From: Minisyncoccota bacterium
GTDB lineage: Bacteria > Patescibacteriota > Minisyncoccia > Phycocordibacterales > UBA1550
DNA: 64,000 nt
Assembly: GCA_023229865.1 (NCBI GenBank)
Contig: JALNYL010000007.1
Coordinates: forward strand, 325 to 64,324
Direction: 5' to 3'
Positions 9,440 to 64,000 of the stretch are shown in pieces. Within the stretch, counting starts at the first letter, position 1; every line of letters starts with the position of its first letter. The notes below the pieces were generated by a model. The model ran no database searches and was not told the origin of the DNA. It worked only from the letters and a program-made list of their open reading frames with translations. A program made the translations under genes and the position numbers.

Positions 9440-11788
9440 ATGGCAAAAGACAATAACAAGAAAACACTCATCATCCTCGACGCACACGCGATTCTTCATC
9501 GCGCATATCATGCGCTTCCTGATTTTTCTTCAAGCAAGGGAGAGCCTACGGGGGCACTCTATGGGCTCTCGACAATGATTATGAAAATCATTAAGGACCT
9601 GAAGCCAGACTATATCGTCGGGTGTTTTGATATGCCACACCCAACCTTTCGTCATGAAGCCTATGAAGCATACAAGCTCGGTCGTGCGAAAGCAGAAGAC
9701 GATCTCGTGCATCAGATCAAACGCTCGCGCGATGTGTTTGTGGCACTCAACATCCCCGCATACGAGCTCCCTGGTTTTGAGGCTGACGACCTTCTCGCAA
9801 CTATTGTGGAAAAAACAAAGAAGGAAAAAGATTTGCGTGTCATCATTGCGTCGGGGGATATGGACACACTGCAGCTTGTCGACGACGATCGTGTCCTTGT
9901 GTACACACTCAAGAAGGGAATCAATGACACTATTTTGTACAACGAAAAAGCGGTGGTCGAGCGTTTTGGATTTGTGCCAGCACTTTTGCCAGACTACAAA
10001 GGCCTCCGCGGTGATCCGTCGGACAACATCATCGGCATCAAAGGCATTGGGGAAAAAACAGCGACGACCCTCATCACTACATTTGGTTCCGTTGAGGACA
10101 TGTATAAAAAATTAAAAAAGAGCCCAGAAGCTTTTAAAGAAGCTGGACTCACCCCACGCATCATCAAACTCCTTGAAGACGGAGAAGAGGAAGCACTCTT
10201 TTCAAAAACACTTGCGACCGTCCGCCGTGATGCGCCTATTGAATTTGAGTTGCCAAAGAAAATTTGGAAAGAAAGTTTTGAGCCCGCAAAGGCAGAGACA
10301 CTCTTTGCTGACCTTGATTTCCGTGGGCTCCGTGACCGCTTACATGAGCTTGTTGGTATTGTGCGTGAGGCACCCGCAAAAGAAAAGGAGGCAGAGATTG
10401 TTGATCCCACTCTTTTTAAACAAGCACAAATTGCATTATGGCTCCTTAACTCTGAGCTCACAACACCGTCGCTTGAAGACATTCTCCACCACACAAAGAA
10501 AGATAATTTTGCTGACGCCTTTGAAGAGCTCGAGGCGCGCATTGGCAAGGAGGGGCTCGGGGGTGTGTATCGTGATATTGAGCTTCCTATCGTTCCTATT
10601 ATTGAAGAGGCACAAAAATACGGCATCATCGTCGACAAGAAACACCTTGAGAAGCTTTCAAAGAAATACCACACTGAGCTCGATAAAATCACGGGACGCA
10701 TTTATGAATACGCGGGTGGTGAGTTTAATATGAATTCACCTAAGCAGCTTGGGGAAATTCTTTTTGATAAATTGAAGCTCGAAGTGAAGGGGCTCAAGAA
10801 GACAGAAGGTGGCGCGCGCTCCACGCGCGAGTCAGAACTCGTGAAGCTCCGCGAAGTACACCCGATTATTGAAGACATCCTCCTGTATCGCGAACTTCAA
10901 AAACTTCTTTCGACATACATCGACAATCTCCCCCTTCTCGTCGCAGAAGATGGACGCCTCCATACGACACTCAACCAAGCAGGGACCACAACAGGAAGAA
11001 TGTCCTCATCAAATCCAAACCTCCAGAATATCCCTGTGCGCGGAGAAATGGGGGTGGCTATCCGCGATGCCTTTGTGGCAAGGGAAGGTTCGACGCTTGT
11101 CGGTTTTGACTATTCACAGATCGAGATGCGCGTACTCGCTGCGCTCTCACAGGACGAGCATTTGATGGAAGTATTTCGCACGGGGGTTGATGTACACACA
11201 TCGGTTGCTTCGCGCGTGTTTAAGGTTGCCGAAAAAGATGTGACGACTGAGATGCGTCGCCGCGCGAAGGTAATCAACTTTGGTATCGTGTACGGTATGG
11301 GAGTGAATGCGCTCAAGGATAATCTCGGCTCGACGCGCGCTGAGGCTCAAACATTTTATGATAACTATTTTGCAACGTTCCCGAAGATTGCAAACTATTT
11401 TGAAGAAGTGAAATCACATGCAAAGAAAGATGGGTTTACGACGACGTACTTCGGTCGCCATCGTTTCTTTGCGGGGCTCAAGTCATCGATACCGTTTATC
11501 CGTGCGAGCGCTGAGCGCATGGCGATGAACGCACCTCTTCAAGGGACGGCAGCGGATATCATTAAAATTGCGATGAAGCGTGCACACGATGGGCTCGAAA
11601 AAGCAGGGCTTCTCTCGAAAGCGCATCTTATTCTCCAGATTCACGACGAACTTCTTTTTGAAGTAGAAGAGGGGAGCGTAGAAAAAGTGCGTGAAGTAGT
11701 GCGCGAGGCGATGGAGCACGCGGTGGATTTCCCTGTTCCTACCACGGTGTCTATCGAAGAAGGGGAGCGTTGGGGATCAATGAAATAA
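9440..11788 (+). CDS. polA: DNA polymerase I (5'-3' exonuclease plus polymerase domains)
   Basis: N-terminal 5' nuclease region. Polymerase motifs RRRAKVINFGIVYGMG (motif B) and LQIHDELLFEV (motif C). Confidence 0.9.
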   Translation: MAKDNNKKTLIILDAHAILHRAYHALPDFSSSKGEPTGALYGLSTMIMKIIKDLKPDYIVGCFDMPHPTFRHEAYEAYKLGRAKAEDDLVHQIKRSRDVFVALNIPAYELPGFEADDLLATIVEKTKKEKDLRVIIASGDMDTLQLVDDDRVLVYTLKKGINDTILYNEKAVVERFGFVPALLPDYKGLRGDPSDNIIGIKGIGEKTATTLITTFGSVEDMYKKLKKSPEAFKEAGLTPRIIKLLEDGEEEALFSKTLATVRRDAPIEFELPKKIWKESFEPAKAETLFADLDFRGLRDRLHELVGIVREAPAKEKEAEIVDPTLFKQAQIALWLLNSELTTPSLEDILHHTKKDNFADAFEELEARIGKEGLGGVYRDIELPIVPIIEEAQKYGIIVDKKHLEKLSKKYHTELDKITGRIYEYAGGEFNMNSPKQLGEILFDKLKLEVKGLKKTEGGARSTRESELVKLREVHPIIEDILLYRELQKLLSTYIDNLPLLVAEDGRLHTTLNQAGTTTGRMSSSNPNLQNIPVRGEMGVAIRDAFVAREGSTLVGFDYSQIEMRVLAALSQDEHLMEVFRTGVDVHTSVASRVFKVAEKDVTTEMRRRAKVINFGIVYGMGVNALKDNLGSTRAEAQTFYDNYFATFPKIANYFEEVKSHAKKDGFTTTYFGRHRFFAGLKSSIPFIRASAERMAMNAPLQGTAADIIKIAMKRAHDGLEKAGLLSKAHLILQIHDELLFEVEEGSVEKVREVVREAMEHAVDFPVPTTVSIEEGERWGSMK

Positions 11789-14542: not shown

Positions 14543-14971
14543 ATGACCGACGATAATCGCTTGATTTACAAAGAGCCTCTCTCGGTAAAAATAGCGCGGT
14601 ATTTAAAGCAGAAGGGGTTCCAGGCCGCATCTATTCATTCTGGTGCAGCCATGGACTCTCTAGCGGGGGCGTCCTGCTTTGGTGTGTTATATCAAGACCC
14701 CGCCATAAAACAGAAGACGTATTTCTGGGGGCTCATCAAGGGGGACACGCCCAGGAGAATTTATCTTGGGGACATTTACATCGACGGGGGAAACCCTCGT
14801 TCGAGCGCGGACCACTGGCGTTTCGAAATGTACGGCAAAGAATATTTCGAGATTGCAAAAGGGTTGGCGAGTGAACTCGTTAAAGAGTTCAATGTCAAAA
14901 TCACGTTTAAGGTTGCTGAAGACTGTGTGAAGCACGAGGGATTCCCCTCCGATTCAGATCCTGGGTGGTGA
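14543..14971 (+). CDS. Hypothetical protein
   Basis: AGGAGA RBS. No motif recognised. Confidence 0.3.
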   Translation: MTDDNRLIYKEPLSVKIARYLKQKGFQAASIHSGAAMDSLAGASCFGVLYQDPAIKQKTYFWGLIKGDTPRRIYLGDIYIDGGNPRSSADHWRFEMYGKEYFEIAKGLASELVKEFNVKITFKVAEDCVKHEGFPSDSDPGW

Positions 14972-15026
14972 CAAATAACACCGAGCTGAAATTGAGCTCG
15001 GTGTTTTCTTTTTGTGCTCTTTAGGA

Positions 15027-15440
15027 TTATAGTGGCAAGTCGACAGCGAACGCTCCTGCGCCAAAGAAGAGGAGAGAGAATGACGCGACCGCGAGGAGAA
15101 TATAAAACTCAGTTGTGTTGTGGGGAAGAGCAGATGGTTTGCGCCACTTGATAAGTGACATGATCATCATGATTGCTCCCATTGCAATAGCTGCCCCTTG
15201 GGTGTAGAAACCGACCACAAGAAGTGCGCCTGCGATTCCCAAAAGAGATGAAATGACAGTCGCGAAAACTTTTGCGGGGCGGAGGCCAAGCTTTTCGTAG
15301 AAATGAATTTGTTCAGACTTCTCGCTCGTTGCTTGCTTGTACCAAAGAGACACAAAAATAAACCCAAGGACAACGCGAAGCAAAAAGACGCCAAGCATTT
15401 GATAATCAAAAAAAGCGGGGAAGAGAGATACTGTTTGCAT
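15027..15440 (-). CDS. DoxX-family membrane protein
   Basis: Four predicted TM helices with DoxX-like spacing. Confidence 0.55.
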   Translation of the reverse strand: MQTVSLFPAFFDYQMLGVFLLRVVLGFIFVSLWYKQATSEKSEQIHFYEKLGLRPAKVFATVISSLLGIAGALLVVGFYTQGAAIAMGAIMMIMSLIKWRKPSALPHNTTEFYILLAVASFSLLFFGAGAFAVDLPL

Positions 15441-15516
15441 TGGTTCATTGTAACAAACTTACCCCTCGTTGCCAAAAGAAAAAGACCGCCAGCGGATGCG
15501 GGCGGTCTGAGATAAA

Positions 15517-15993
15517 TTACTTCTGGTATTTCGAGATATCTATCCCGATATCGAGGGGGCCAAAGGCGAGAGGGAGTAGTTCCTTTATGGATGTGATAAT
15601 GATTTTATCCATCTTCGTTGTCGAAAGAACAAACCCGAAATCTCCGCCAGAGACTTGAGACAGTTCGTAGAGCATTTGGCGGCAACTTCCACAAGGCGCC
15701 GTGACAGTGTTGGTGTCAAAGGTTTCCCCTCGCGCAATGATAGCAATGCCACGAAATTTTCGTAACCCTACTGCGTTTGCAGCTAAAATTGCTGCACGTT
15801 CTGCGCATATCGTTGACCCATATGCTGCATTTTCAACATTTGAGCCAGAGATAAGGGTCCCGTCTTCTGCAATAAGTGTCGCTCCTACATAGAAATGAGA
15901 GTAGGGGTTGTAGGCGTTTTCCATTGCTTCAGCTGCAGCGAGAAGTGCGTTTTGTTGGATTTGAGACAACTCATCAAAAAAGATGTTTCGCAT
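15517..15993 (-). CDS. cdd: Cytidine deaminase
   Basis: Zinc-ligand motifs CAERAAI and PCGSCRQ. Confidence 0.85.
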   Translation of the reverse strand: MRNIFFDELSQIQQNALLAAAEAMENAYNPYSHFYVGATLIAEDGTLISGSNVENAAYGSTICAERAAILAANAVGLRKFRGIAIIARGETFDTNTVTAPCGSCRQMLYELSQVSGGDFGFVLSTTKMDKIIITSIKELLPLAFGPLDIGIDISKYQK

Positions 15994-39618: not shown

Positions 39619-40014
39619 ATGACAAAAGCTACAAAAAATATTGTTATCGGACTCGGTGTCCTCATTGTGTCTCTTGTCGTCATCTTCTCGTCGACGACAA
39701 AGGCGAGCGGTGGTCTCCTCGGGGCAGATGAGTTTATCACGAAGTACCAGAGTGCTCCTGGTGCGGTGCTCCTCGATGTGCGCACGCCGGGAGAGTTTGT
39801 GGCAGGGCACATCGCCACGGCGATAAACGTCGACTATGAAAATCCCAATTTCGTAGAAGAACTCAAAAAACTCGATCCGACAAAAACATATTTCATTTAC
39901 TGTCGTTCTGGCAATAGGTCTTCGAAAGCCCTCGTGCTCATGAAGCAGAATAATTTCCAAATGGTGTACGACTTGCGCGGGGGCGTGAGTGGATCGCCCC
40001 AGCTTTTGAAGTAG
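39619..40014 (+). CDS. Membrane-anchored rhodanese-domain protein
   Basis: N-terminal TM helix. Active-site CRSGNRS. Confidence 0.7.
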   Translation: MTKATKNIVIGLGVLIVSLVVIFSSTTKASGGLLGADEFITKYQSAPGAVLLDVRTPGEFVAGHIATAINVDYENPNFVEELKKLDPTKTYFIYCRSGNRSSKALVLMKQNNFQMVYDLRGGVSGSPQLLK

Positions 40015-40036
40015 GGGGGGGTAGCCAAAAACACCA

Positions 40037-40077
40037 AAACCCCACCGCGCGTTTTATTAACGCGCGGTGGGGTTTTG
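40037..40077 (+). terminator. Intrinsic terminator
   Basis: AAAACCCCACCGCGCGTTTTATTAACGCGCGGTGGGGTTTTGTTTT. Confidence 0.6.
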
Positions 40078-40202
40078 TTTTGAATTGTTGAGATGACCGA
40101 GTTCTATGCTTAATGCAGAAATTTGGTAGCTCGGAATCTTTGGGGGTTGTCCACATTTTCCTTTAGTAAAATTACGATAAAAGTGTTAGGCTTTTGTTAT
40201 CT

Positions 40203-41033
40203 ATGTCTAAAAATGAGACAATAAAATTTTCAGGTTATCATTTGATAATTAAAGGGAAGAAAACCTTTGATTTGTCATGTTTCTCTTTGGTAGAGAGTGA
40301 GCGGACAGAACGCCTTGTTATTTCAAGCGGAGAGCAAAAAGAAACTCTTCAAGTAACTAAACACAAGAAAGTAACACACTCTGAGCGTTTTTTGACGCTG
40401 TATTTTAATTCAGGGGAAAAATATCCATATTCACCGACAGTTATCGACGGTGAACTGCAAGAAACTGATAATCCGAGGAATCCCGAGCAGATCGAACTTG
40501 ATGAACAACTTTTTGTTTTGTTTGATACCGTAACGCAGAGAATGTGGATTTCAAATCAACGAAAGAAAAATTTTATAGTAGAGTGGATAGCCAAAAAAAC
40601 AAAATTTGAAATCTCTGTTAAATCCATCCTTGACGAAGAGACATTTTTGGAAAAAATTAAATCAGTTGAGGAGGTGTCTTTTTGTGTTGTGCCGAATTTA
40701 TTTAATACTTCTGGGCAAAATACATTATCAGGGCATTTAGCCCAGGATATTTATGGGTTTGGTGCAAGCAAGGCACGCATAGAACTCTCATATAAAGATA
40801 TTTCAATTAATGATAAAATAAAGACAAGGATAAGAGAGATGCTTGGTCGTAAATCAGATTTTCAAGATGTTAGTGTTGTGGGTAGAAGTGATGAGGGGTT
40901 AGATACAATTTTTAATTTGGAGGAAGTAATAAGTAGGATTCACGTAGAAGTTGTTGCGGATAATAAATCTAAACTACTTGATCCAGTGGAAGTATTCGAT
41001 TCTTTAATTAGTAATATAAATAAATATGAGTAA
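40203..41033 (+). CDS. Hypothetical protein A of the low-GC island (an alternative TTG start lies at 40194)
   Basis: Long ORF in an AT-rich segment. No recognisable motif. Confidence 0.4.
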   Translation: MSKNETIKFSGYHLIIKGKKTFDLSCFSLVESERTERLVISSGEQKETLQVTKHKKVTHSERFLTLYFNSGEKYPYSPTVIDGELQETDNPRNPEQIELDEQLFVLFDTVTQRMWISNQRKKNFIVEWIAKKTKFEISVKSILDEETFLEKIKSVEEVSFCVVPNLFNTSGQNTLSGHLAQDIYGFGASKARIELSYKDISINDKIKTRIREMLGRKSDFQDVSVVGRSDEGLDTIFNLEEVISRIHVEVVADNKSKLLDPVEVFDSLISNINKYE

Positions 41034-41487
41034 AAAATATTTCACGGCCACTGTGTTGTTCCTAGTATCTCTACTTGTTCAAATTAAATTCTTTTCTAAT
41101 ATTCAATTTAGTCTAAGTACAATAAGCGATATAGTTACGTTTTTGTCTATCTTGTTTGGCTTTTATGTAACTAGTCTTGCGATTTTTGTAACCTCCAAGT
41201 ATGTTTCAAGTCTGTATGAGATCGTGGACCGCAATAATAAGGGGGTTACATTGCTTGATACACTGACGAACAACTACAAATTTGGATTGATCCTCACTCT
41301 CTTGTCATTAATGTATTTTATTGGAGTTCAGTTTTTTATACCTTTACAACAAAGCACACTGTCTCTTGGCGACGGAATATTTTACCCCCTAATAGGATTT
41401 CTTGTTCTAGATTTTGTTTATTGTTTTGCAATGCTTAGTGATTTAATTAAAATTATTATTCAAGAAGGCAAAAGTCGCGCGGTCTAA
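41026..41487 (+). CDS. Hypothetical 4-TM membrane protein B of the island
   Basis: Start overlaps the stop of A (ATGAGTAA). Four hydrophobic helices. Confidence 0.45.
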   Translation: MSKKYFTATVLFLVSLLVQIKFFSNIQFSLSTISDIVTFLSILFGFYVTSLAIFVTSKYVSSLYEIVDRNNKGVTLLDTLTNNYKFGLILTLLSLMYFIGVQFFIPLQQSTLSLGDGIFYPLIGFLVLDFVYCFAMLSDLIKIIIQEGKSRAV

Positions 41488-41522
41488 ATTGTTATAATTA
41501 TTCGTTTGAATAAACAAAGATT

Positions 41523-42128
41523 ATGAATGAAGAAATTTTAGCAAGAACGGAGTCTCTTTATTTAATCAATTCAAACAAGGAAAAGTGCGCTGAATTGATT
41601 AGGGAATCTGACTTATCAGCAGAGGATATGATTGACATATTTATTAGTTTGCATATCGTTCTTGAGGTTGGGCTAAATGCATTTTTTAGAAACTTGTCTT
41701 TGTTGTCTATCAAAAAAGACGTTGACACTTTTGAGATTATAAGAAATGTTGACTCGGTCAATTTTATAGATAAAACAATTATGTTTATTTATAATTCGAA
41801 ATTTGATTTTTTGAGCGAAGAAGATCTGCATAGGGCTACTGCCTATCATAGTATTATTGGCCACTTAAAACATTTTTCAGCGATGCGCAATCGGCTACTC
41901 CATGGACATTCAATAAGCACTATATTTGATGGTGAGAGAAACAGACACTCGGGATTGAAAGAAGATATAAATTTGGAAAATCTTAAAAGACAAATTTTAA
42001 AATTCAGTTTTATTTTTGAGGGAATGAAATTTTATTTAGATAAATTAGATTCGCCTCTTACTGAATCTGGGAAAGAAAGTTTTAAGGCCGAATATTTAAG
42101 TGACGAATTTTTGCCAATATTGAGATAA
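41523..42128 (+). CDS. Hypothetical protein C with an Rx4H HEPN-like motif (candidate RNase)
   Basis: KHFSAMRNRLLHGHS carries an R-x4-H motif in an otherwise alpha-helical protein. Confidence 0.35.
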   Translation: MNEEILARTESLYLINSNKEKCAELIRESDLSAEDMIDIFISLHIVLEVGLNAFFRNLSLLSIKKDVDTFEIIRNVDSVNFIDKTIMFIYNSKFDFLSEEDLHRATAYHSIIGHLKHFSAMRNRLLHGHSISTIFDGERNRHSGLKEDINLENLKRQILKFSFIFEGMKFYLDKLDSPLTESGKESFKAEYLSDEFLPILR

Positions 42129-42301
42129 CTTATCCTTTTGCCCCTTAAATCGGCCATACCTCCACACTTACTTTTTAAAACCTGGTTATGCAATGGTGAT
42201 TCATCTTTCAATCCACCTCATTGACTCTCCTCAAACTTTAATATAGAACTAACGTAGTTGGATTTGGTCTTTTAATCAATTTACAGAAACGGAGGGTTCA
42301 A

Positions 42302-53706: not shown

Positions 53707-54180
53707 TTATGCAGTAGTTTTTAATTTTTTCCAAACGACTATTCCAAGGAGGAAGAGAAGTGTCGATACAAGTGCAGAGAGGAGGCAGTAAACACAAAAT
53801 GCCCCGATGAGAAATTTTTGTACATAAATAAAGTAACACGAAGAAAGGAACCCAGCGGTCGTCGCGAGGGGGATTAGTTTTGCAACGAGAAGATTTTTTG
53901 TGTCGATATAGAGAAGCGTGAGAAAACCGATACCGAGATAAAATACAACACCCCAGAGCGAGAGAGGGACTCCAAAGAGGACTGAGAGGGGAGACTTTGA
54001 AACCTCATCGCATCCTGAGGTGATGAAGCAAGGGATGGGTGTCCCTGAGAGGCGTTTCGCAAGGAGGAAAGCTGAGTCAGTAAAGCCAATGAGCGCAAGC
54101 GCAATGATTGCCCAAATTATCCAATTAGGGAGTTGTCCTATAAGTGTGCGAGGCGAAGTTGTTGATTCGTTGTTAAACAT
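53707..54180 (-). CDS. Vitamin K epoxide reductase (VKOR)-family membrane protein
   Basis: Four or five TM helices. Active-site CFITSGC. Loop cysteine. Confidence 0.7.
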   Translation of the reverse strand: MFNNESTTSPRTLIGQLPNWIIWAIIALALIGFTDSAFLLAKRLSGTPIPCFITSGCDEVSKSPLSVLFGVPLSLWGVVFYLGIGFLTLLYIDTKNLLVAKLIPLATTAGFLSSCYFIYVQKFLIGAFCVYCLLSALVSTLLFLLGIVVWKKLKTTA

Positions 54181-54200
54181 GAGAGTGTGTTTAAGAAATA

Positions 54201-54881
54201 TTATTTCACTTGCTCGCTTTCTTTGGTTCCCTGTGCGATTGCGTATTCAATGAGAGCAGTCAACTCTTCTTTTGAGCGAGGGTTTTCTGCCATCTTTCCA
54301 TTAATAAAGAATGTTGGTGTGTGATCGATTGCCGAAAGCTCACCGCTTTTCTTGCTGCGCTCAACGCGAGCTTTTGTGGCGTCGCTCATCACGTCAACTT
54401 TGTACTTTGAGATATCGAGTCCGAGTTTTGTTGCGTATCCTTCAAAAAATGTTTCTGGCTTAGAAACTTCTGACCACTCACTCTGGTTTTTAAAAAGCAT
54501 ATCTGCCATCTCCCAGAATTTTCCCTGGTTGCCAGCTGCTTCCGCTGCGTATGCTGCCGCGAGCGCGTTCTGGTGTTGAGGGAGGGGGAAGTGTCGATAG
54601 GTGAAAGAAATTTTGTCTTTGTACTCAGCAAACACTGCTTCAAGGAGTGGGTGATATGCGCCACAAGCAGGGCACTGGAAATCACTGTACTCAACGAATG
54701 TTACTTTTGGAGTTTTGCTTCCTTTGGTTTGATCCGTCTCATCAAGAGGAAGATTCATGGTGCCGTCTTTGCGGGGAAGCTCTGTGGGGCCGTTTGTGGC
54801 AACCTGATAAGCACCAATAGCAGCAATACCAACTACGAGCGCCGCCGAAAGCCAAACAATCATTCTTTTTTGTGTATCCAT
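54201..54881 (-). CDS. DsbA-like thiol:disulfide oxidoreductase (membrane-anchored)
   Basis: N-terminal TM helix. CPAC active site within EYSDFQCPACGAYHP. Confidence 0.8.
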   Translation of the reverse strand: MDTQKRMIVWLSAALVVGIAAIGAYQVATNGPTELPRKDGTMNLPLDETDQTKGSKTPKVTFVEYSDFQCPACGAYHPLLEAVFAEYKDKISFTYRHFPLPQHQNALAAAYAAEAAGNQGKFWEMADMLFKNQSEWSEVSKPETFFEGYATKLGLDISKYKVDVMSDATKARVERSKKSGELSAIDHTPTFFINGKMAENPRSKEELTALIEYAIAQGTKESEQVK

Positions 54882-54951
54882 AGTATTCGTATGGTAGCAA
54901 GGTTTTTGGTGTTTGGGAAGTTTGTCATTTGTCGTGTAGAATGTAGGTATT

Positions 54952-56253
54952 ATGAAATACCAGGGATACATGAATGAAGGGGCGGGGGTAGTAGACTCCT
55001 CGCGTGCGAGCGAATACATTGCGACCATGCGTCGTGCGATGAGTGATAGCTCGTACGCTCTCCCCGAGGCATCACTTCGTTTGCCTTTTGATGAAGAGCT
55101 TCTTAAAAAATCAAAAACGCTTGCGGTAAAACTCGCAACACCGAAACTCTCTTACATTCTTGATATTGGGATTGGAGGATCAAACCTTGGTGCGAAGGCG
55201 CTCTATGAAGCGACAGCGGGTGTGATGGATCCACACACGCCTTTTGCCCCCAAGATGATTTTTGCGGACACATGTTCACCCGAGCTCCTTTCGGATATTA
55301 CCGAGCTCCTCCTTAACGATGTGATGGACAAGGAGGAACTCATTATTATTGTCGCAAGCAAATCAGGGACAACCACAGAAACTATTCTCAACGCATCCGT
55401 CCTCGTGAGAGCACTTGAGGAAAAATTTGGACCGCTCGCTGATCGCATTGTGTGCATTACTGATGAAGGGTCACCTTTGTGGCAAGTAGGGGAGAAGCAG
55501 GGTTTCCATTTGTTGCCTGTGCCGAAAAAAGTGGGCGGCCGTTACTCAGTGTTTTCTCCTGCAGGAGTGTTCCCTCTTATGTGCGCAGGGATGGACGTCG
55601 AGCCACTTATGCGCGGAGCGCAGTCTGCTATCGACGACACTATTGAGAGAGGGATTGAGAGTAATGCATTTCGTGCAGCGCAAGATATCGTCACGTGGCA
55701 CGCGAAAGGTGCGGTTGTTTTTGATTTCTTTGTATTTCATCCCGAGCTCGAGTCCGTGGGCAAGTGGTATCGTCAGCTCTTTGCAGAAAGTATCGGCAAA
55801 GAAACAACGATTGACGGAGCGCTAACGACGCATCGCATGGTGCCGACGGTATCTATCGGCTCGACCGATCTTCACTCTGTTGAGCAGATGAATCTTGCGC
55901 AGCCAAGTGTGAGTGCGCGATTTCTCGTGCGTGCGCATGAGCCACACTGGGAACATGAGTTTCTCGCAGAAGATAAAATATTTGCGCCACTTGTTGCGGG
56001 AGTTTCTCGTCGTGCGCCATGCGAAATTCTCGATGCTATTTATAAAGGGGTTGCTGAGACGTATCAGAAGCGTGGTGTTTCGTATGGAGAAATTTCTCTT
56101 ACTGATCTTGACCCTGAGTCATTGGGAACCCTGCTTCAATTTATGATGTGCACGGTGATGCACCTCGCAAGGGAGCTCAATATCAACGCTTTTGACCAGC
56201 CAAACGTGGAGGAGTACAAGGAGGCGACACGTCGCATCCTAAGTGGGAAGTAA
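54952..56253 (+). CDS. pgi: Glucose-6-phosphate isomerase (short type)
   Basis: SIS motif SKSGTTTETI. Pgi C-terminal catalytic region. Confidence 0.85.
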   Translation: MKYQGYMNEGAGVVDSSRASEYIATMRRAMSDSSYALPEASLRLPFDEELLKKSKTLAVKLATPKLSYILDIGIGGSNLGAKALYEATAGVMDPHTPFAPKMIFADTCSPELLSDITELLLNDVMDKEELIIIVASKSGTTTETILNASVLVRALEEKFGPLADRIVCITDEGSPLWQVGEKQGFHLLPVPKKVGGRYSVFSPAGVFPLMCAGMDVEPLMRGAQSAIDDTIERGIESNAFRAAQDIVTWHAKGAVVFDFFVFHPELESVGKWYRQLFAESIGKETTIDGALTTHRMVPTVSIGSTDLHSVEQMNLAQPSVSARFLVRAHEPHWEHEFLAEDKIFAPLVAGVSRRAPCEILDAIYKGVAETYQKRGVSYGEISLTDLDPESLGTLLQFMMCTVMHLARELNINAFDQPNVEEYKEATRRILSGK

Positions 56254-57305: not shown

Positions 57306-58274
57306 ATGGCAAAAGGCAACGGTAACAAGAAGGGTGGCAAAGACAAGGGTGGCAACAAGGGCGATGCCAACACCAAGAAGGTCAAGAAGGGTCAGGGCAA
57401 ACCTCCCGCTTCCGCCGAAGTGGTGGTCAGGCAGAAGGGCCCCGCGCCCAAAAGCTACAAGCCGGCAGCAAAGATTTCCGAGACGATGCAAACTGTCGCG
57501 GGGACATATAACGGATTTTGCGGCCTGGTGAAGGTGCACGACATGCAGTTCCGTTTTTCTGCCGAGACCTCCGAAGACGGCGGAAAGTTCAACGTCGTTC
57601 GCCTGGTCTACGCCCCTCCCTCTACTGAGCTCTGCAAGGTTAAGGATTTCAAGACGGGCGTCAAGCTCGAAAGCCTGAAGAGCGCGGTGTTCGTCTCGGA
57701 TTACGAGAAGGGGACCGAGCAGTACGAACTGCAGGCGAAGATCTGGAAGTTCTGGACCCGCGTTTACTCGAAGGAGGGCCTCCACATTTATTCAACGAAA
57801 AAGGTCGCCCCTGCCAAGGCCCCCGCTGTCGAAGTGAAAGCCTCGGCTTCGGTCGCGGATTTCGTCTCCTACAAGAAGGGTGCGTACAGCTTCGAAGCTT
57901 CGGGGCCGAAGGTGGTCGTGTTGATCGAGGGTTGTTCCGCTGCTCCGTGTGCCCCGCAGTTTGGCGCTACGGGCAAGTCGACCCACAAGATCAAGCTCAT
58001 CTCGGTCGATGAGGGTCACTCGCTCTCTGGTTGCAAGGTTGGTACGTTCTTGTACTACCGCGACGACCTCTTCTCTGGCAAAACCCCGACGTTCACGGGT
58101 TCGTCTGCGAAGGATTGCGGTAAACTCTACGCTTATCTGGCGAATGTGCTCATGCTCTATCGTCGCGCCGTTGTGGACAAGATCGTTTCCTCTCAGGACG
58201 CATCGCAAGGTGCCGTCGTTGGGGAGAAGGTCGCCGCCAAGTTGGCTCATCGTCGCGTCGCACAGGCTGCCTGA
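57306..58274 (+). CDS. Hypothetical protein with a Lys/Gly-rich basic N-terminal tail. GC-rich.
   Basis: AAGGAG RBS. MAKGNGNKKGGKDKGGNKGD... Confidence 0.4.
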   Translation: MAKGNGNKKGGKDKGGNKGDANTKKVKKGQGKPPASAEVVVRQKGPAPKSYKPAAKISETMQTVAGTYNGFCGLVKVHDMQFRFSAETSEDGGKFNVVRLVYAPPSTELCKVKDFKTGVKLESLKSAVFVSDYEKGTEQYELQAKIWKFWTRVYSKEGLHIYSTKKVAPAKAPAVEVKASASVADFVSYKKGAYSFEASGPKVVVLIEGCSAAPCAPQFGATGKSTHKIKLISVDEGHSLSGCKVGTFLYYRDDLFSGKTPTFTGSSAKDCGKLYAYLANVLMLYRRAVVDKIVSSQDASQGAVVGEKVAAKLAHRRVAQAA

Positions 58275-58431: not shown

Positions 58432-58614
58432 ATGTCATTCATCGAATATATTAAGGAGTCAAAAGGCGAACTCGCCCACGTATCTTGGCCAACACGCAGC
58501 CAGGCTATTGCGTTTACTGTGCTTGTTATTGTGCTTTCAGTTTTGACATCGTTCTACCTCGGTGCGTTTGATACTTTGTTCACAACCCTCATTAAAAAGT
58601 TCATCGTTCGTTAA
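58432..58614 (+). CDS. secE: Preprotein translocase subunit SecE
   Basis: 60 aa, single TM helix. Position before nusG. Confidence 0.8.
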   Translation: MSFIEYIKESKGELAHVSWPTRSQAIAFTVLVIVLSVLTSFYLGAFDTLFTTLIKKFIVR

Positions 58615-58634: not shown

Positions 58635-59180
58635 ATGGCAAAACAAGAAACAACCGGCGAGCGCAATTGGTACGCGATCCACACCTATGTGGGTTACGAA
58701 AACGCAGTGCTCCGCAATTTGAAGCAGCGTATTGAGTCTCTCGGAATGGAGGACAAGATTTTCAACGTGCTCATCCCTATGGAGAAGAAGATTAAAGTGA
58801 AGGGGACAAAGCGCGTAGAGGTGGAGGAAAAGATTTTCCCTGGTTACATTCTCGTAGATATGATTGTGACCGATGACTCATGGTATGTAGTGCGCAATAC
58901 TCCTCGTGTGACTGGTTTCGTGGGTGCGGGTGTGACTCCAGTGCCTCTCGCAAAAGCAGAAGCAGATATGCTCTTCAGCCGTATGTCAGACAATAAGCCA
59001 AAGCACAACATTGACCTTATCGTCGGTGATGTAGTGACTATTGTTGACGGACCTTTCAAGGATCTTGAAGGCAAGGTTGCAGAAGTGGATGGTGAGCGTG
59101 GTCGCGCAAAGGTTCTCGTTTCGATGTTTGGTCGCGAGACACCAGTAGAACTCGATTTCCTTCAGATTCACAAGATTTAA
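58635..59180 (+). CDS. nusG: Transcription termination/antitermination factor NusG
   Basis: NGN domain NWYAIHTYVGYEN. KOW motif. Confidence 0.9.
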   Translation: MAKQETTGERNWYAIHTYVGYENAVLRNLKQRIESLGMEDKIFNVLIPMEKKIKVKGTKRVEVEEKIFPGYILVDMIVTDDSWYVVRNTPRVTGFVGAGVTPVPLAKAEADMLFSRMSDNKPKHNIDLIVGDVVTIVDGPFKDLEGKVAEVDGERGRAKVLVSMFGRETPVELDFLQIHKI

Positions 59181-59818: not shown

Positions 59819-60424
59819 ATGTCTGCCCAAAACATCAAGAGTATTTTGTCTCAAAGTGCTTCTTTTGAAGACCGTTTTATTCCGGACTTGGAACATCTCA
59901 AGGTCGTTACAAAAAACCTTCAGGACGCTGGTTATAAGGTCGTCCTTACCCAAGGCGTTTACGACTTGCTCCATGAGGGTCATGGTAAGTATCTTGAACT
60001 GGCGAAGGCCCAAGGCGACATCTTGATTGTCGGCGTCGACACCGACGAGTATACGCGTAAACGCAAGGGGGACAATCGCCCCATAGTGCCAGAATCTGAG
60101 CGTCTCCGGATGCTGACATTTTTGCGCTCTGTGGACATCGTTACATTGCGTACGCTCCCAGCGTCTGAAAAAGATATTGATTACTTGCATAAGGCGCTTC
60201 GGCCCGATGTCTTTGTTATGTCGACGACGACGAAAGATTTTCCTCAGGAAAAACGAGCTGAGATAGAGCGGTATGTCGGCAAGGTCGAGATTTTTGAGCC
60301 ACAGGCGGAAACTTCAAGCACTGCTCGGATTCGTCACCTAATGATCGACGGAGCCTCGGAACTCGTCAAACGTCTCAATTCAATAACGCAGCAATTCATC
60401 GATGAAATGCGGGGGAAACCATGA
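59819..60424 (+). CDS. Cytidylyltransferase-family nucleotidyltransferase
   Basis: HxGH motif GVYDLLHEGH. RBS GAGGG. Confidence 0.55.
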   Translation: MSAQNIKSILSQSASFEDRFIPDLEHLKVVTKNLQDAGYKVVLTQGVYDLLHEGHGKYLELAKAQGDILIVGVDTDEYTRKRKGDNRPIVPESERLRMLTFLRSVDIVTLRTLPASEKDIDYLHKALRPDVFVMSTTTKDFPQEKRAEIERYVGKVEIFEPQAETSSTARIRHLMIDGASELVKRLNSITQQFIDEMRGKP

Positions 60425-61263
60425 GCAATATTGTTATCGCGTTTATCCCGGTGCTTCATCGCGGGTATCTAGACTTCCTCAAGCAAAGCGGGGCAAAGGA
60501 TATCTATCTGCTCAGCGCAGAGGATACTCCTGAGCTCTCGTACCTTTCTCGCGAAATGCGAGCGCTTCATTTTGATGAAGTGGAAGTGATGTTGAGCGGG
60601 TATGGTTTCAGGGTGTACCGTTTCTCTTCCGAAGTCGAAAGACTTAAGGTGGGAGACTTCGACATCCTTATGCCTGACGAAGACATCACACGTGCTGTCT
60701 ACAAGAAGCACTTCGAAGGGAAGCAGGTGAAGTTCATCAACACCTTCTTGCGTTGGGACTGGGCGAAGTCAACTGCTTTTACTCCGGTGGCTCCCGAGGC
60801 TGACAGGGTTCTCTCAATAGGGGACATTGAAGCGGAAATCGTTTCGCGGAACTTCCGGTTACTTTTTCAGGAGCTCACAAAAAGTTCCGATTGGTGGCGG
60901 CAAGTGTCTGCGATGGCTGTTTGCAAAAGCGGCGAGGTTATCGTTGCGTACAACAAGCATTTCCCAAACGAGTACGTTCCCTATATTGATGGTGACCCTC
61001 GGAACAATTTTGGACCGGGGGAATTCATCGAAGTGTCATCAGCTCTGCATGGTGAAATCGCAGTTATTGCAGAAGCTGCAAGACAGGGGGTCTCTCTGGA
61101 AGATGCAGATTTGTTGGTCACTACATTTCCTTGTTGTGGCTGCGCAGCTGCCGTCTCTGTCTCAGGCGTTCAGCGTGTATTTTTCACAGGCGGGTATTCT
61201 AATCTCAATGGGGTAAAGGACTTGCGTGATCGTGGAATTGAAATCATTTACGTAGAACTCTAG
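60421..61263 (+). CDS. Two-domain protein: unknown N-terminal domain fused to a CMP/dCMP deaminase zinc-binding domain
   Basis: C-terminal HGEIAVI...PCCGCAAAV (H-x-E and PCxxC). Start overlaps the upstream stop (ATGA). Confidence 0.55.
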   Translation: MSNIVIAFIPVLHRGYLDFLKQSGAKDIYLLSAEDTPELSYLSREMRALHFDEVEVMLSGYGFRVYRFSSEVERLKVGDFDILMPDEDITRAVYKKHFEGKQVKFINTFLRWDWAKSTAFTPVAPEADRVLSIGDIEAEIVSRNFRLLFQELTKSSDWWRQVSAMAVCKSGEVIVAYNKHFPNEYVPYIDGDPRNNFGPGEFIEVSSALHGEIAVIAEAARQGVSLEDADLLVTTFPCCGCAAAVSVSGVQRVFFTGGYSNLNGVKDLRDRGIEIIYVEL

Positions 61264-61343
61264 CGTCGTTTATGACGCAACAAAGGCCAGCAGATATTTT
61301 GCTGGCCTTTTAATTTGCATATTAAAATAACAAACGCAAACTA

Positions 61344-61814
61344 TTATTTTTTAGTTTTATATCCAGCGTACAAGAGAAGTGGCTCAGAGTCTTTTCTTTT
61401 CTTTGTTCCAAGGACATAGTGAGCGTGTAGGTGACTAACGCTTCCGCCTGTGTAATCAGTGTCGCCAAATCGGAACAAGAAAACGCCAGCAGGGAGAGAA
61501 AGATCTTTCTCAAGTTTTTTTGTAATGTCGAGAAATTCTTTTAAAGCCGCTGGTGTTAACTCAGTAAAAGAGACTATGTGCCTTCGGTGTACAAACATTA
61601 AGTGGTGTTTTGCGCCTTTATAGGGGTTAAAGTTTTCTGTTACCACCCAATGCTTTCCTTGAACAAGAGCGGGTTTATTGTGGTACACAAATGACTCTCG
61701 TTTTTTCGAAAAGTCTACGCAAAAAGGGCAAGCTTCATCCTTTATTATTTTTTCGTACACGTCTTTTTTTTCTCTCGCGTGGCTAATGTTGACCAAGGGT
61801 TTCATAATATTCAC
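61344..61814 (-). CDS. HIT-family protein
   Basis: Histidine triad HLHAHYV. CPFC zinc motif. Confidence 0.7.
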   Translation of the reverse strand: MNIMKPLVNISHAREKKDVYEKIIKDEACPFCVDFSKKRESFVYHNKPALVQGKHWVVTENFNPYKGAKHHLMFVHRRHIVSFTELTPAALKEFLDITKKLEKDLSLPAGVFLFRFGDTDYTGGSVSHLHAHYVLGTKKRKDSEPLLLYAGYKTKK

Positions 61815-61866
61815 AGCATAACAAAAAGCCTCCCCTTTGTGAAAGGGGAGGCAAAAGTACTGTTTG

Positions 61867-62784
61867 TTATACCGGCGTCGGGATGTTCATTTTTTCATGA
61901 GCCGTGTATTCAGACAACGTGAAATGCTTCGCACGAAAGTCGTGAATATTGGTAATACCTTTCTCGAGGGTGATAATCGGGAAGGGGAACGGCTCGCGCG
62001 CGATGAGCTCTTCAGCGGCTTGGTACTGGCATCCATAGAGATGCACATCGGAGAATGTTTGAACAAACTCCACAAATGTGTAACCAAGGATTTGCGCCAG
62101 CATCATCCCCATTGTGGTGTACTGAATCATGTTGAATACAACACCGACAAGAAGGTCGCCTTTGTGCTGCACGTGATGCAGGGTGAGTTCCTTGCGTTCG
62201 GGGTCGAGCAGTATGTGCACGTCCCCGTGACACGGAGATACTACAACCTTCCTTGTCCCGAGGGGGCCGAAAATCTCGGGAGGATACCAGTTAGAGAGAC
62301 GGTGTGTCCGCAGGTGCGGTGCGCGTTTCATCTGTTCGATAATTGCATCGATTTGATTAAACTCACCACCGCCCCTCATGGGGAATCTCGTCCAGACTGC
62401 GCCGTATGACGCAGTCCCGAGGTCGCCTTCTGGGAGTCCGAAGATAGCGCATTTTTCCTTCGTAACCCATGGTGCCCACCATTTTGGATTAAGTCCGTAT
62501 GCAACCAGCTCTTCGAGGGTTTGAGCCCCGTTCAAGAAACCGATTTCTTCCGAGATTGCTCCATGAAAGAGGCCCGACAGGTCACGCAAGTTCATGACGG
62601 GTGCGCCGTTTGCCATATCGAAATGGAACTGCGCCCCCACAACCATTCTTGCTTCGCCGCCTTGAATAGGATGAACCGTGCGCCCCTTTGTCAGGATGCG
62701 CTCGATTAAATCTCTGAATTGATAATCCGGAACCCTTTGTTCGAGGGGGAGATAGTTTACAACAGGTGGTTTTTCTTGCATCAC
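61867..62784 (-). CDS. Divergent thymidylate synthase (ThyA)-family protein, possibly a pyrimidine hydroxymethylase
   Basis: Catalytic SPCH. RLSNWYP (compare SAWNP). C-terminal VHLYGCQY...REPFPFP (compare DAHIY...REPRPFP). Lacks the canonical DRTGTG motif. Confidence 0.5.
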   Translation of the reverse strand: MMQEKPPVVNYLPLEQRVPDYQFRDLIERILTKGRTVHPIQGGEARMVVGAQFHFDMANGAPVMNLRDLSGLFHGAISEEIGFLNGAQTLEELVAYGLNPKWWAPWVTKEKCAIFGLPEGDLGTASYGAVWTRFPMRGGGEFNQIDAIIEQMKRAPHLRTHRLSNWYPPEIFGPLGTRKVVVSPCHGDVHILLDPERKELTLHHVQHKGDLLVGVVFNMIQYTTMGMMLAQILGYTFVEFVQTFSDVHLYGCQYQAAEELIAREPFPFPIITLEKGITNIHDFRAKHFTLSEYTAHEKMNIPTPV

Positions 62785-62903
62785 GTGCCTCCGTTTTGTG
62801 TGAAAGTATCTATTAAGGTGCTTTGTTTCCTGAGTGATTTATATCAGAAAATTAGGCATTGTCAATCTTTCGTAAAGAGAGACGCGTGGTAATATTCAAT
62901 TAT

Positions 62904-63326
62904 ATGGAACTCAATATTAAAAAACTTCACCCGAGCGCTATGGTGCCAACGTATGCACACGATGGCGATGCGGGATTTGATTTGTGCGCGATTGAAAATG
63001 TGATCATCAAGGCAGGGGAGCGCACGCTTGTGCGTACGGGGATTGCAATGGAAATCCCTTTTGGTTACGTGGGGCTCATTTGGGACAAGAGCGGACTCTC
63101 GATGAATCACGGGCTCAAGACACTCGGTGGCGTCGTAGATGCGGGGTATCGCGGAGAAGTCACGGTGGGCATTATTAATCTGAGTACGAGTGATTACACC
63201 TTCGTCGCGGGGCACAAAGTTGCGCAAATGCTTATTCAAAAAGTTGAACGAGTAGAAATAAAAGAAGCTGAGGAGCTTTCTGGTACCACGCGCGGGGAGA
63301 GCGGATATGGCAGTACGGGGAAGTAA
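62904..63326 (+). CDS. dut: dUTP diphosphatase
   Basis: GDAGFDL, GLIWDKSG, GYRGEV and RGESGYGSTG motifs. Confidence 0.8.
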   Translation: MELNIKKLHPSAMVPTYAHDGDAGFDLCAIENVIIKAGERTLVRTGIAMEIPFGYVGLIWDKSGLSMNHGLKTLGGVVDAGYRGEVTVGIINLSTSDYTFVAGHKVAQMLIQKVERVEIKEAEELSGTTRGESGYGSTGK

Positions 63327-63379: not shown

Positions 63380-64000
63380 ATGATGAGTGAAAAGCTAGAA
63401 ACATTGGTACGTGAGGCACTCGGAGCGCTTGGTATTGAGGCGACGACGGTTACCATCGAACGTCCTGCAGATATTACCCACGGCGACTATTCGACCAACG
63501 CCGCTCTTGCGTATGCAAAGGTTGCTGGTGTTTCACCGCGCGAACTCGCAGGGAAACTCATGGAGAAAATTTTGGAAGAACCAACCGAAGAGGTGAAGGA
63601 GCTTGAGATTGCAGGGCCTGGGTTTATCAATTTCCGACTTTCGGATGAGGTAATAAGAAAAGAAAACTCAAGGGAAAAAGTTGATCTCAAAACTATTTAT
63701 TCAGGAAAGAATATTCTTGTCGAGCATTCATCCCCAAACCTCTTTAAGCCATTTCACATTGGACACCTTATGAACAATATTGTGGGGGAGTTTGTTGCGC
63801 GCGCGATGACGAAAGGTGGAGCCTCTGTGCAGACAGTCGCGTTCCCGTCTGATATTTCACTCGGTATCGCAAAGGCTATCTACGTACTCCAAAAGGATGG
63901 GGGAACTTCGCAGCAGATATTTAAAGACATGACGACCTCAGGAGATTTTGAGGATAAAACAAAAGTAGTTAATTATCTCGGGGAGTGCTACACGCGTGGC
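63380..64000 (+). CDS. argS: Arginyl-tRNA synthetase, 3' truncated by the window end
   Basis: N-terminal Arg_tRNA_synt_N-like domain. HIGH motif SSPNLFKPFHIGHL. Confidence 0.8.
   Translation, partial: MMSEKLETLVREALGALGIEATTVTIERPADITHGDYSTNAALAYAKVAGVSPRELAGKLMEKILEEPTEEVKELEIAGPGFINFRLSDEVIRKENSREKVDLKTIYSGKNILVEHSSPNLFKPFHIGHLMNNIVGEFVARAMTKGGASVQTVAFPSDISLGIAKAIYVLQKDGGTSQQIFKDMTTSGDFEDKTKVVNYLGECYTRG

Follow-up and report, generated by a model that had tools for sequence, protein, structure and literature searches.

Gene content and conserved neighbourhood of the island

The DNA analysed here, which we call the window, is a stretch of 64,000 nucleotides from a Minisyncoccota bacterium (contig JALNYL010000007.1, positions 325 to 64,324). 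Our subject is a group of five adjacent genes acting on nucleotides at ~59.8–63.3 kb, one of which encodes a divergent member of the thymidylate synthase (ThyA) family. A first-pass annotation had listed these genes and asked whether they serve the housekeeping synthesis of thymidine monophosphate (dTMP) or form a DNA-base hypermodification module. All five were confirmed by Pfam and NCBIfam profile searches. The first encodes a cytidylyltransferase-family nucleotidyltransferase (CT; 59819..60424, + strand; PF01467, 57 bits vs 21), and its stop overlaps by 4 bases (ATGA) the start of a 280-aa deaminase fusion (60421-61263, +). This fusion combines an N-terminal domain with no Pfam match, termed X here (aa 1–125; 60421..60795, +), with a C-terminal half that is a deoxycytidine monophosphate (dCMP) deaminase domain (about aa 130–280; 60808..61263, +; PF00383, dCMP_cyt_deam_1, 44.5 bits). 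A HIT-superfamily protein (61344..61814, − strand; PF11969, DcpS_C, and PF01230) and the divergent ThyA (61867..62784, −; 304 aa from the ATG at 62781; PF00303, 167.7 bits vs 24.3) follow on the minus strand, a detail that the earlier description had left out. Divergent from thyA, and separated from it by a 120-bp intergenic region, lies dut (62904..63326, +), whose product, dUTP diphosphatase, scores above the equivalog threshold for trimeric dUTPases (PF00692, 103 bits; TIGR00576, 149.4 vs 102.55; NF001862, 143.3 vs 103). The layout is that of two convergent gene pairs plus dut.

Upstream, the island is anchored by rplK (ribosomal protein L11; 59231..59656, +; 268 bits with a lineage L11 hidden Markov model, HMM), which is preceded by secE (58432-58614) and nusG (58635-59180). 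Downstream of dut lies the 5′ part of argS (arginyl-tRNA synthetase; 63383..64000, +; lineage HMM, 213 bits), which runs off the window and is 59% identical by tblastn to the ArgS of a relative (L001). The base composition of the island is uniform with the remainder of the window, with no compositional anomaly. Seven tRNAs elsewhere were the only Rfam matches at gathering thresholds, with no riboswitch or further RNA inside the island or close by.

The window ThyA belongs to a large clade of Patescibacteria, also known as the candidate phyla radiation (CPR): all its close homologs derive from metagenome-assembled genomes of this group, among them Yonath-, Campbell-, Nomura-, Kaiser- and Adlerbacteria. 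On the contigs of these homologs (40–77% identity) we found a common core consisting of rplK, the pair of CT and X-deaminase, HIT and thyA on the strand opposite to that pair, and dut. Relatives carry in addition genes for dihydrofolate reductase (DHFR), serine hydroxymethyltransferase (SHMT), FolD, thymidylate kinase (Tmk) and, once, a folylpolyglutamate-synthase-like gene. In GTDB, scanned at one genome per species, 299 loci encode the clade, and among the species representatives scanned the best identity to the window ThyA was 72–73%. Eighty species-level genomes were retained for a census in which lineage HMMs were used to count genes within 10 kb of thyA; many of the misses fall on short contigs. 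HIT was present in 80/80 genomes, X-deaminase in 76, CT in 73 and DHFR in 70, followed by L11 (51), SHMT (39), dut (37), argS (26), FolD (13), a second HIT paralog (12) and Tmk (4). The recurrence of one arrangement across 80 species-level genomes puts this clustering far beyond chance.

The folate genes can be found in close association with thyA. In one relative (L003) the DHFR gene ends 13 bases ahead of thyA on the same strand, and in L001 DHFR, SHMT and Tmk sit between dut and argS. In the window, argS lies directly downstream of dut, at the place where relatives have DHFR, SHMT and Tmk and then argS. A thymidylate synthase yields dihydrofolate and needs DHFR, whereas a hydroxymethylase releases tetrahydrofolate (THF) and has no such need (PMC4528723); the linkage with DHFR and SHMT is therefore the strongest argument that the clade makes dTMP. 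Complementation of an E. coli ΔfolA strain by folA genes of Paceibacterales has been reported (PMC11974145). A search of the window with the ThyX motif RHRx7-8S returned chance matches only, and the ten neighbourhoods with gene tables contained no glycosyltransferase, hydroxymethyl-deoxynucleoside monophosphate (hmdNMP) kinase or other DNA-decoration gene.

Active site of the divergent ThyA

The window ThyA was aligned with E. coli ThyA and T4 gp42, whose reference sequences were checked against the PDB beforehand, and with two sets of clade members, 120 listed database homologs and, later, 80 genome-derived copies. It passes the TIGR03284 equivalog narrowly (118.5 bits vs a cutoff of 108.35) and reaches none of the other NCBIfam ThyA equivalog cutoffs, while PDB thymidylate synthases match it at E 1e-29. 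In E. coli numbering, the residues retained are E58, W80, W83, Y94, R126′, C146, H147, Q165, D169, G173, N177, D205, H207 and Y209. Nine of these positions (E58, W80, W83, Y94, R126, C146, D169, H207 and Y209) are kept in 80/80 genome copies, and P145-C146-H147, Q165, R166, S167, G173 and D205 are conserved across the clade in both sets. The catalytic Cys146 in SPCH, correctly recognized in the first-pass annotation, is accompanied by the general acid/base residues E58 and Y94 in the window and in all 80 genomes, as expected for a ThyA enzyme. Residues N177 and H147, which discriminate members of the superfamily acting on deoxyuridine monophosphate (dUMP) from those acting on dCMP (PMC8670742), are both kept in the window and in 79/80 genomes.

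The folate site is also present. W80, W83 and D169 are invariant and F176 is kept (96/120 homologs), with L172 replaced by Val and K48 by Arg. From the conserved P261 on, the C-terminus is flush with that of E. coli ThyA (IPTPV vs APVAI), and this tail, of E. coli length after P261, is near-invariant across the family (IPT[PA][VIT]). The earlier statement that the folate-tail region is lost was mistaken, since the tail stands together with W80, W83, D169, E58, G173 and F176. The window protein shares with E. coli ThyA its fold and family, the catalytic PCH, E58, Y94, W80, W83, D169, N177, H147, H207, Y209, R126′ and the tail length, and clade relatives are also alike in the genomic coupling to DHFR and SHMT. 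It differs in being only ~25–30% identical, in the loss of R21 and R127′, in the replacement of H212 by Gln and in several insertions.

The main departures concern the phosphate site. The canonical DRTGTG is lost, as had been noted, and is replaced by PIQGGE in the window, where the clade reads P-I-(Q/H)-G, with Ile at the position of R21. R127′ is Thr throughout the clade. Arginines specific to the clade are the N-terminal R16 and R177, which occupies the position of E. coli D139. The RxxxSNW region had been rightly assigned to phosphate binding and corresponds to the R126′ region. Out of the four phosphate-site arginines (R21, R126′, R127′ and R166), the window enzyme has only R126′ left. 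Both R21 and R127′ are replaceable in known thymidylate synthases, and a natural active synthase without R127′ occurs in a Vibrio/Aeromonas clade, with a raised Km (PMC6005164); the loss of both residues is therefore compatible with activity, probably with weaker dUMP binding. This VAAP-clade synthase (Vibrio parahaemolyticus) resembles the island enzyme in being active despite a replaced R127′, which indicates that the arginine quartet is not inviolable (PMC6005164). It lacks one arginine, whereas the Patescibacteria clade lacks two (R21 and R127′) and the window copy three, and it has no CT, X-deaminase or HIT partners.

The third loss is peculiar to the window. Codons CAC AAA (62161..62166, −) encode His-Lys at the positions of E. 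coli R166-S167 (QHKGD vs QRSGD in the clade), and Ala144, beside the catalytic Cys, is replaced by Ser. Arg166 and Ser167 are present in 119 of the 120 listed homologs, the sole exception being a strain variant of the window's own protein (P0001), and in 80/80 genome copies. The double exchange requires at least three nucleotide changes and is common to P0001, which differs from the window at another residue. At the 66 clade-invariant columns the window ThyA deviates four times, a number reached or exceeded by only 2/119 other sequences, and three of its four deviations lie in active-site segments. A frameshift or assembly artefact was considered and rejected, as the frame is continuous, the other frames contain no RS and the strain variant agrees; an identical (100%) Logan contig may derive from the same data as the window. 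We also rejected a pseudogene. The mean identity of the window ThyA to outgroups (61.9%, vs 61.6–66.6% for its sisters) indicates a normal rate, and ThyA and CT, each 70% identical to their L001 counterparts, are the two best-conserved genes of the island. With its open reading frame (ORF) uninterrupted and its conservation equal to that of any neighbour, the gene is not a decaying pseudogene. Judging from the position of the residue, Lys167 may take over phosphate binding in the window enzyme, and we see two options: either Lys167 would supply the phosphate contact, or the enzyme would be crippled or retargeted. The exchange is not specifically linked to the absence of DHFR, since the closest sisters that keep R166/S167 (L007, L008, L015 and L016) also have no island DHFR.

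A different exchange was observed in one relative. The clade ThyA encoded at 10001-10897 of locus L021 (JAPLYL010000002.1, Candidatus Parcubacteria bacterium LacPavin_0920_WC57_MAG_42_180) has Asp at the position of N177 and Asn at that of H147, and another clade protein (P0043) has D177 with H147 kept. The L021 neighbourhood is otherwise that of the clade: DHFR lies immediately upstream, and HIT, X-deaminase and CT are all close at hand. D177 in these two proteins would correspond to the cytosine-type pocket of dCMP methylases and hydroxymethylases. An enzyme of the L021 type could methylate dCMP and leave the deamination of the product to dTMP to the adjacent deaminase, or it could be a genuine producer of 5-methyl- or 5-hydroxymethylcytosine in CPR.

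Partner proteins and other features of the window

In CT, the catalytic motifs HEGH and ETSSTARIR are intact and correspond to the HxGH and C-terminal (R)TxGxSTT-type motifs of cytidylyltransferases. The protein scores 103 bits with TIGR02199 (rfaE_dom_II), below the cutoff, and reaches no NCBIfam equivalog cutoff. Among solved structures it comes nearest to ethanolamine-phosphate cytidylyltransferase (3elb, 5x9q) and TagD. CT is adjacent to and co-directional with X-deaminase in 72/73 genomes, and in one protein of 469 aa recovered by the representative search (P0382) CT, X domain and dCMP deaminase form a single chain, which ties the island's first and second genes together in the Rosetta-stone sense. 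Given the 4-base overlap, the adjacency and this triple fusion, CT is functionally tied to the deaminase. Compared with TagD, ethanolamine-phosphate cytidylyltransferase and HldE domain II, CT shares the HxGH motif and the (R)TxGxSTT-like one and can be aligned with 3elb, 5x9q and 1coz; it differs from the family in falling below all equivalog cutoffs and in its partner X domain, which has HRGY instead of HxGH and no C-terminal motif. Ethanolamine-phosphate cytidylyltransferase itself provides a precedent for two tandem domains of this fold.

A word-indexed homolog search with the X domain alone gave no match, whereas the exhaustive representative search recovered a family of 284 representative clusters, mostly of ~280 aa and almost always fused to a deaminase. 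P10, H13, G15, L110, R111 and W112 are invariant in this family and Y16 is present in ~90%, within the motifs PVLHRGY and FLRWDW. Modelled on its own with AlphaFold2 (AF2), the domain adopts a Rossmann-like alpha/beta fold (predicted local distance difference test score, pLDDT, 89). Its best PDB matches in Foldseek are glycerol-3-phosphate cytidylyltransferases (TagD; 2b7l and 1coz), although these are weak (E 0.046, probability 0.93/0.89, TM score 0.52–0.58), and further fold matches include CARF domains and pantothenate synthetases. hhalign pairs PVLHRGY of X with DLLHEGH of CT, a motif-level correspondence that is not significant. Based on the model and these matches, X is probably a degenerate cytidylyltransferase-like nucleotide-binding domain.

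The C-terminal domain of the fusion has the zinc-binding and catalytic motifs of dCMP deaminases, HGE (H210/E212) and PCCGC (P237, C238 and C241), all invariant or nearly so. In the AF2 model of the whole fusion (pLDDT 88), its best structural matches are dCMP deaminases (E 2e-10 to 1e-8), namely those of T4 (1vq2, E 2e-10), cyanophage S-TIM5, PBCV-1, human (DCTD) and S. mutans. The domain thus shares with DCTD, ComEB and T4 Cd the fold and the HxE and PCxxC motifs, and differs from them in an invariant clade-specific insert (Y..GDPR) and in the sequence AYNK. The latter (AYNxH in the clade) occupies the position of G(Y/W)N(A/G), the motif of dCTP/dTTP allostery in dCMP deaminases (PMC12088426), with Tyr and Asn kept and the flanks changed. 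Vertebrate CDADC1 likewise has an extra N-terminal domain fused to the deaminase, which may replace canonical allostery (PMC12088426); in the island protein the extra domain is Rossmann-like and probably cytidylyltransferase-like, not a deaminase domain. Our literature searches returned nothing relevant that connects HIT, cytidylyltransferase and dCMP deaminase in Patescibacteria.

The HIT protein contains an N-terminal CPFC motif and HLHAHYV, in agreement with its assignment to the superfamily by PF01230 and PF11969, and lies on the thyA strand in 80/80 loci. We know of no HIT family for which an obligatory linkage with thyA has been described. Comparison with a profile of the family places it nearest to Hint-type structures (E 4e-7). 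In the histidine triad, position three varies across the 80 loci (Q 33, N 20, H 19, other 8), and the window reads HLHAH. HxHxQ is the hallmark of GalT-branch nucleotidyl transferases and phosphorylases (PMC10069634 citing Brenner 2002). With Hint hydrolases and GalT-branch transferases the island protein shares the HIT fold, the CxFC N-terminal motif and the nucleophilic His in H-phi-H, and it differs from known HIT families as a distant branch (E about 1e-7 to Hint) with a variable third triad position. In the window, the gap between the thyA stop and the HIT start holds a strong terminator-like hairpin with an 11-bp stem containing 7 G-C pairs, followed by TTTTTGTTAT (61828..61852, −), so that thyA and HIT are perhaps not co-transcribed. 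This hairpin, which directly follows the thyA stop, overlaps a site resembling a promoter, with a −10 hexamer that stops one base short of the GTG at 61814 (61815-61852, −), and the gene call of the identical Logan contig starts HIT at the ATG at 61805. Going by these signals, HIT may have a transcript of its own, which could be a near-leaderless mRNA translated from ATG 61805. The second, divergent HIT-like paralog (L013 8891-9502, L014 8972-9562 and L005 9430-9876, and 12/80 genome loci) is found upstream of thyA or else in the space that separates HIT from the deaminase; only one HIT gene occurs in the window.

Elsewhere in the window, a stretch of low GC content (40001-42130; 0.34 vs ~0.48 for the window) contains three consecutive plus-strand ORFs without a Pfam match (40194-41033, 41026-41487 and 41523-42128) and is possibly a foreign or fast-evolving insert. 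Between a SIMPL gene and secE lies an ORF of 322 aa with a Lys/Gly-rich N-terminus and no Pfam match (57306-58274, +), and L001 has an unannotated ORF of similar size at the equivalent position (14709-15608). Finally, a pair of genes for VKOR and a DsbA-like thioredoxin adjoins the gene for glucose-6-phosphate isomerase (PGI; 53707-55028 and 54952-56253), an arrangement also present in L003. In its longest version the DsbA ORF shares ~76 bases with the start of PGI, so the true DsbA start is probably further downstream.

Function of the island and rival explanations

Comparison with phage enzymes bears directly on the question of hypermodification. The best PHROG match of the window ThyA is the canonical thymidylate synthase family (151.7 bits). 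Among 50,697 phage records searched, 3,239 had a ThyA match, all below 60% identity, and the best listed (~29%) were canonical synthases beside DHFR. IMG/VR, scanned with clade-specific patterns, gave a single match of 27% identity in a giant-virus bin. No clade member, taking at least 50% identity as the family range, was found in the phage collections searched, and we rejected a phage origin of the clade, as neither the phage GenBank records nor IMG/VR contained a close relative. T4 gp42 (PDB 1b5e) belongs to the same superfamily and is also without R21, but it has Asp at the position of N177, lacks H147, W80/W83 and the C-terminal tail and is 246 aa long, whereas the 304-aa window protein shows none of these features. 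dCMP hydroxymethylases and methylases have Asp at N177 and a replaced H147, and the window ThyA has neither. SPO1 gp29, of the TS4 group, likewise belongs to the superfamily and acts on dUMP (PMC4528723); TS4 proteins reach up to 407 aa and are never beside DHFR (PMC4528723), and gp29 was set apart on these grounds, with no direct alignment. dUMP hydroxymethylases of this kind have ~380–407 aa, a phage context and no DHFR partner, whereas the window protein is cellular and belongs to a DHFR-linked clade.

We conclude, with a probability of roughly 0.75, that the locus is a vertically inherited, lineage-conserved island of Patescibacteria for housekeeping thymidylate supply and not a hypermodification module. 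With the gene identities, conserved residues, synteny and fusion observed as described above, we infer the following catalytic steps. The deaminase domain would convert dCMP to dUMP and Dut would convert dUTP to dUMP; the divergent ThyA would then turn dUMP and 5,10-methylene-THF into dTMP and dihydrofolate. In most relatives the folate cycle would be closed by the island DHFR, often with SHMT and sometimes with FolD, and Tmk is sometimes encoded in the same island. The clade would accordingly represent real synthases working with two of the four phosphate arginines (R126′ and R166). CT and the CT-like N-terminal domain of the deaminase would act as one functional unit, with HIT as an obligate neighbour of thyA. 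CT, X and HIT most likely feed or gate the step from dCMP to dUMP, which could involve either nucleotide sensing that replaces the canonical dCTP/dTTP allosteric site or the turnover of an intermediate linked to a nucleoside diphosphate (NDP).

Several observations weigh against this conclusion. R21 and R127′ are absent from the whole clade and the window ThyA is additionally without R166, a residue regarded as indispensable, which helps to form the thiolate; R166Q leaves the E. coli enzyme almost without activity (PMC11026382; PMC6005164 citing Sotelo-Mundo 2006). No gene for DHFR, SHMT, Tmk or FolD was found within the 64 kb of the window, although other parts of the genome could carry them. 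Textbook dTMP synthesis does not account for CT, X and HIT, and the first-pass annotation was right that plain dTMP synthesis leaves CT and HIT unexplained. Gene order is generally conservative in this lineage, where rplK and argS are also linked, so that adjacency alone is weak evidence for a functional coupling of HIT.

The hypermodification alternative holds that the ThyA paralog makes 5-hydroxymethyl-dUMP or -dCMP, which CT and HIT would help to decorate further, as in phages. The loss of the DRTGTG loop, which had been taken as a signature of hydroxymethylating paralogs, and the two extra nucleotide-handling genes are consistent with it, as is the N177D and H147N pair of L021. That signature fails here, however: the window and all genomes but one retain N177 and H147, the alignment with ThyA and gp42 shows most folate contacts in place, including the tail and the W80/W83 shield, and DHFR is linked in 70/80 genomes. 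As the mapped neighbourhoods contain no glycosyltransferase, hmdNMP kinase or DNA-modifying gene, the best listed phage homologs are distant canonical synthases next to DHFR, the clade is absent from IMG/VR and the genome around the island is a cellular one, with rplK and argS as its flanks, we consider hypermodification highly improbable; of the two possibilities raised at the outset, it is the housekeeping one that the evidence favours. Somewhat less improbable, though still very unlikely, is a carrier-linked route, in which CT would make dCDP-X from dCTP or CTP and a phospho-alcohol or sugar phosphate, X-deaminase would grip the CDP-X handle with its CT-like domain and deaminate the compound to dUDP-X, the arginine-poor ThyA would methylate the latter, and HIT would free dTMP or dTDP and regenerate X-P. 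The intact motifs of CT and its coupling or fusion to the deaminase, the cytidylyltransferases among the best fold matches of X, the absence of R21 and R127′ throughout the clade and the constant linkage of HIT, whose triad is mostly HxHxQ/N and in its HxHxQ form belongs to the GalT branch acting on NDP-X (PMC10069634 citing Brenner 2002), could all be accommodated by such a route. It is entirely inferential and has no precedent that we know of, ordinary synthases tolerate the loss of R21 and R127′ (PMC6005164), and the structural match of X is weak and its hhalign pairing not significant. Moreover, in sequence the HIT family lies nearest to Hint hydrolases, the window HIT has a classical HxHxH, and dut and an ordinary dCMP-deaminase fold fit the textbook monophosphate route. 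In a narrower variant, a substrate carrying another 5′ group would have been adopted only by the H166/K167 ThyA of the window.

A further alternative is confined to the window: its ThyA may have lost or changed its synthase activity through R166H/S167K and A144S, the cell living on salvaged thymidine or dTMP or the enzyme using a substrate with a different 5′ group, with the loss of DHFR and SHMT as the matching half. The restriction of H166/K167 to the window and P0001 among the 120 listed homologs and 80 copies, the minimum of three nucleotide changes shared by both, the four deviations at 66 clade-invariant columns with three in active-site segments, and the missing folate genes and Tmk in 64 kb would all agree with a change of this kind, as would the near-inactive E. 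coli R166Q and the finding that loss of TYMS activity buffers loss of DHFR, both given in PMC11026382. On the other hand, the ORF is uninterrupted, its rate of evolution is normal and no neighbour is better conserved, the remaining catalytic residues are all kept, Lys167 adjoins the phosphate and could compensate, and L007, L008, L015 and L016 lack island DHFR while keeping R166/S167. We therefore regard a changed activity as unlikely but deserving of serious weight. An anti-phage system depleting nucleotides through a dCTP/dCMP deaminase is hardly credible. The deaminase motif region weakly matches an NCBIfam anti-phage dCTP deaminase (42 bits vs a cutoff of 400) and the PADLOC dCTPase model (44 bits over 55 residues), but these matches span only the shared zinc-binding motif and no other island protein matches PADLOC. 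We rejected a defence role because PADLOC gave only this motif; the island is also universal, syntenic and located beside ribosomal-protein genes, unlike defence islands.

With thymidylate supply as the preferred reading, the question raised by this locus is answered in favour of the core dTMP metabolism of a reduced-genome symbiont, and not of a cellular counterpart of phage DNA hypermodification. To our knowledge, these organisms cannot make nucleotides de novo. The novelty lies in a natural clade of ThyA enzymes whose phosphate site is poor in arginine, in the obligatory unit of CT and X-deaminase and in the obligatory pairing of thyA with HIT. The clade is a large one, with 299 genome loci encoding synthases without two of the four canonical phosphate arginines, and the window member, also without the arginine regarded as essential, represents a natural experiment on a drug-target enzyme. 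Three extra proteins, namely CT, a probably CT-like domain fused to dCMP deaminase and HIT, belong to the thymidylate island of Patescibacteria and point to an undescribed step or control in its dUMP and dTMP supply.

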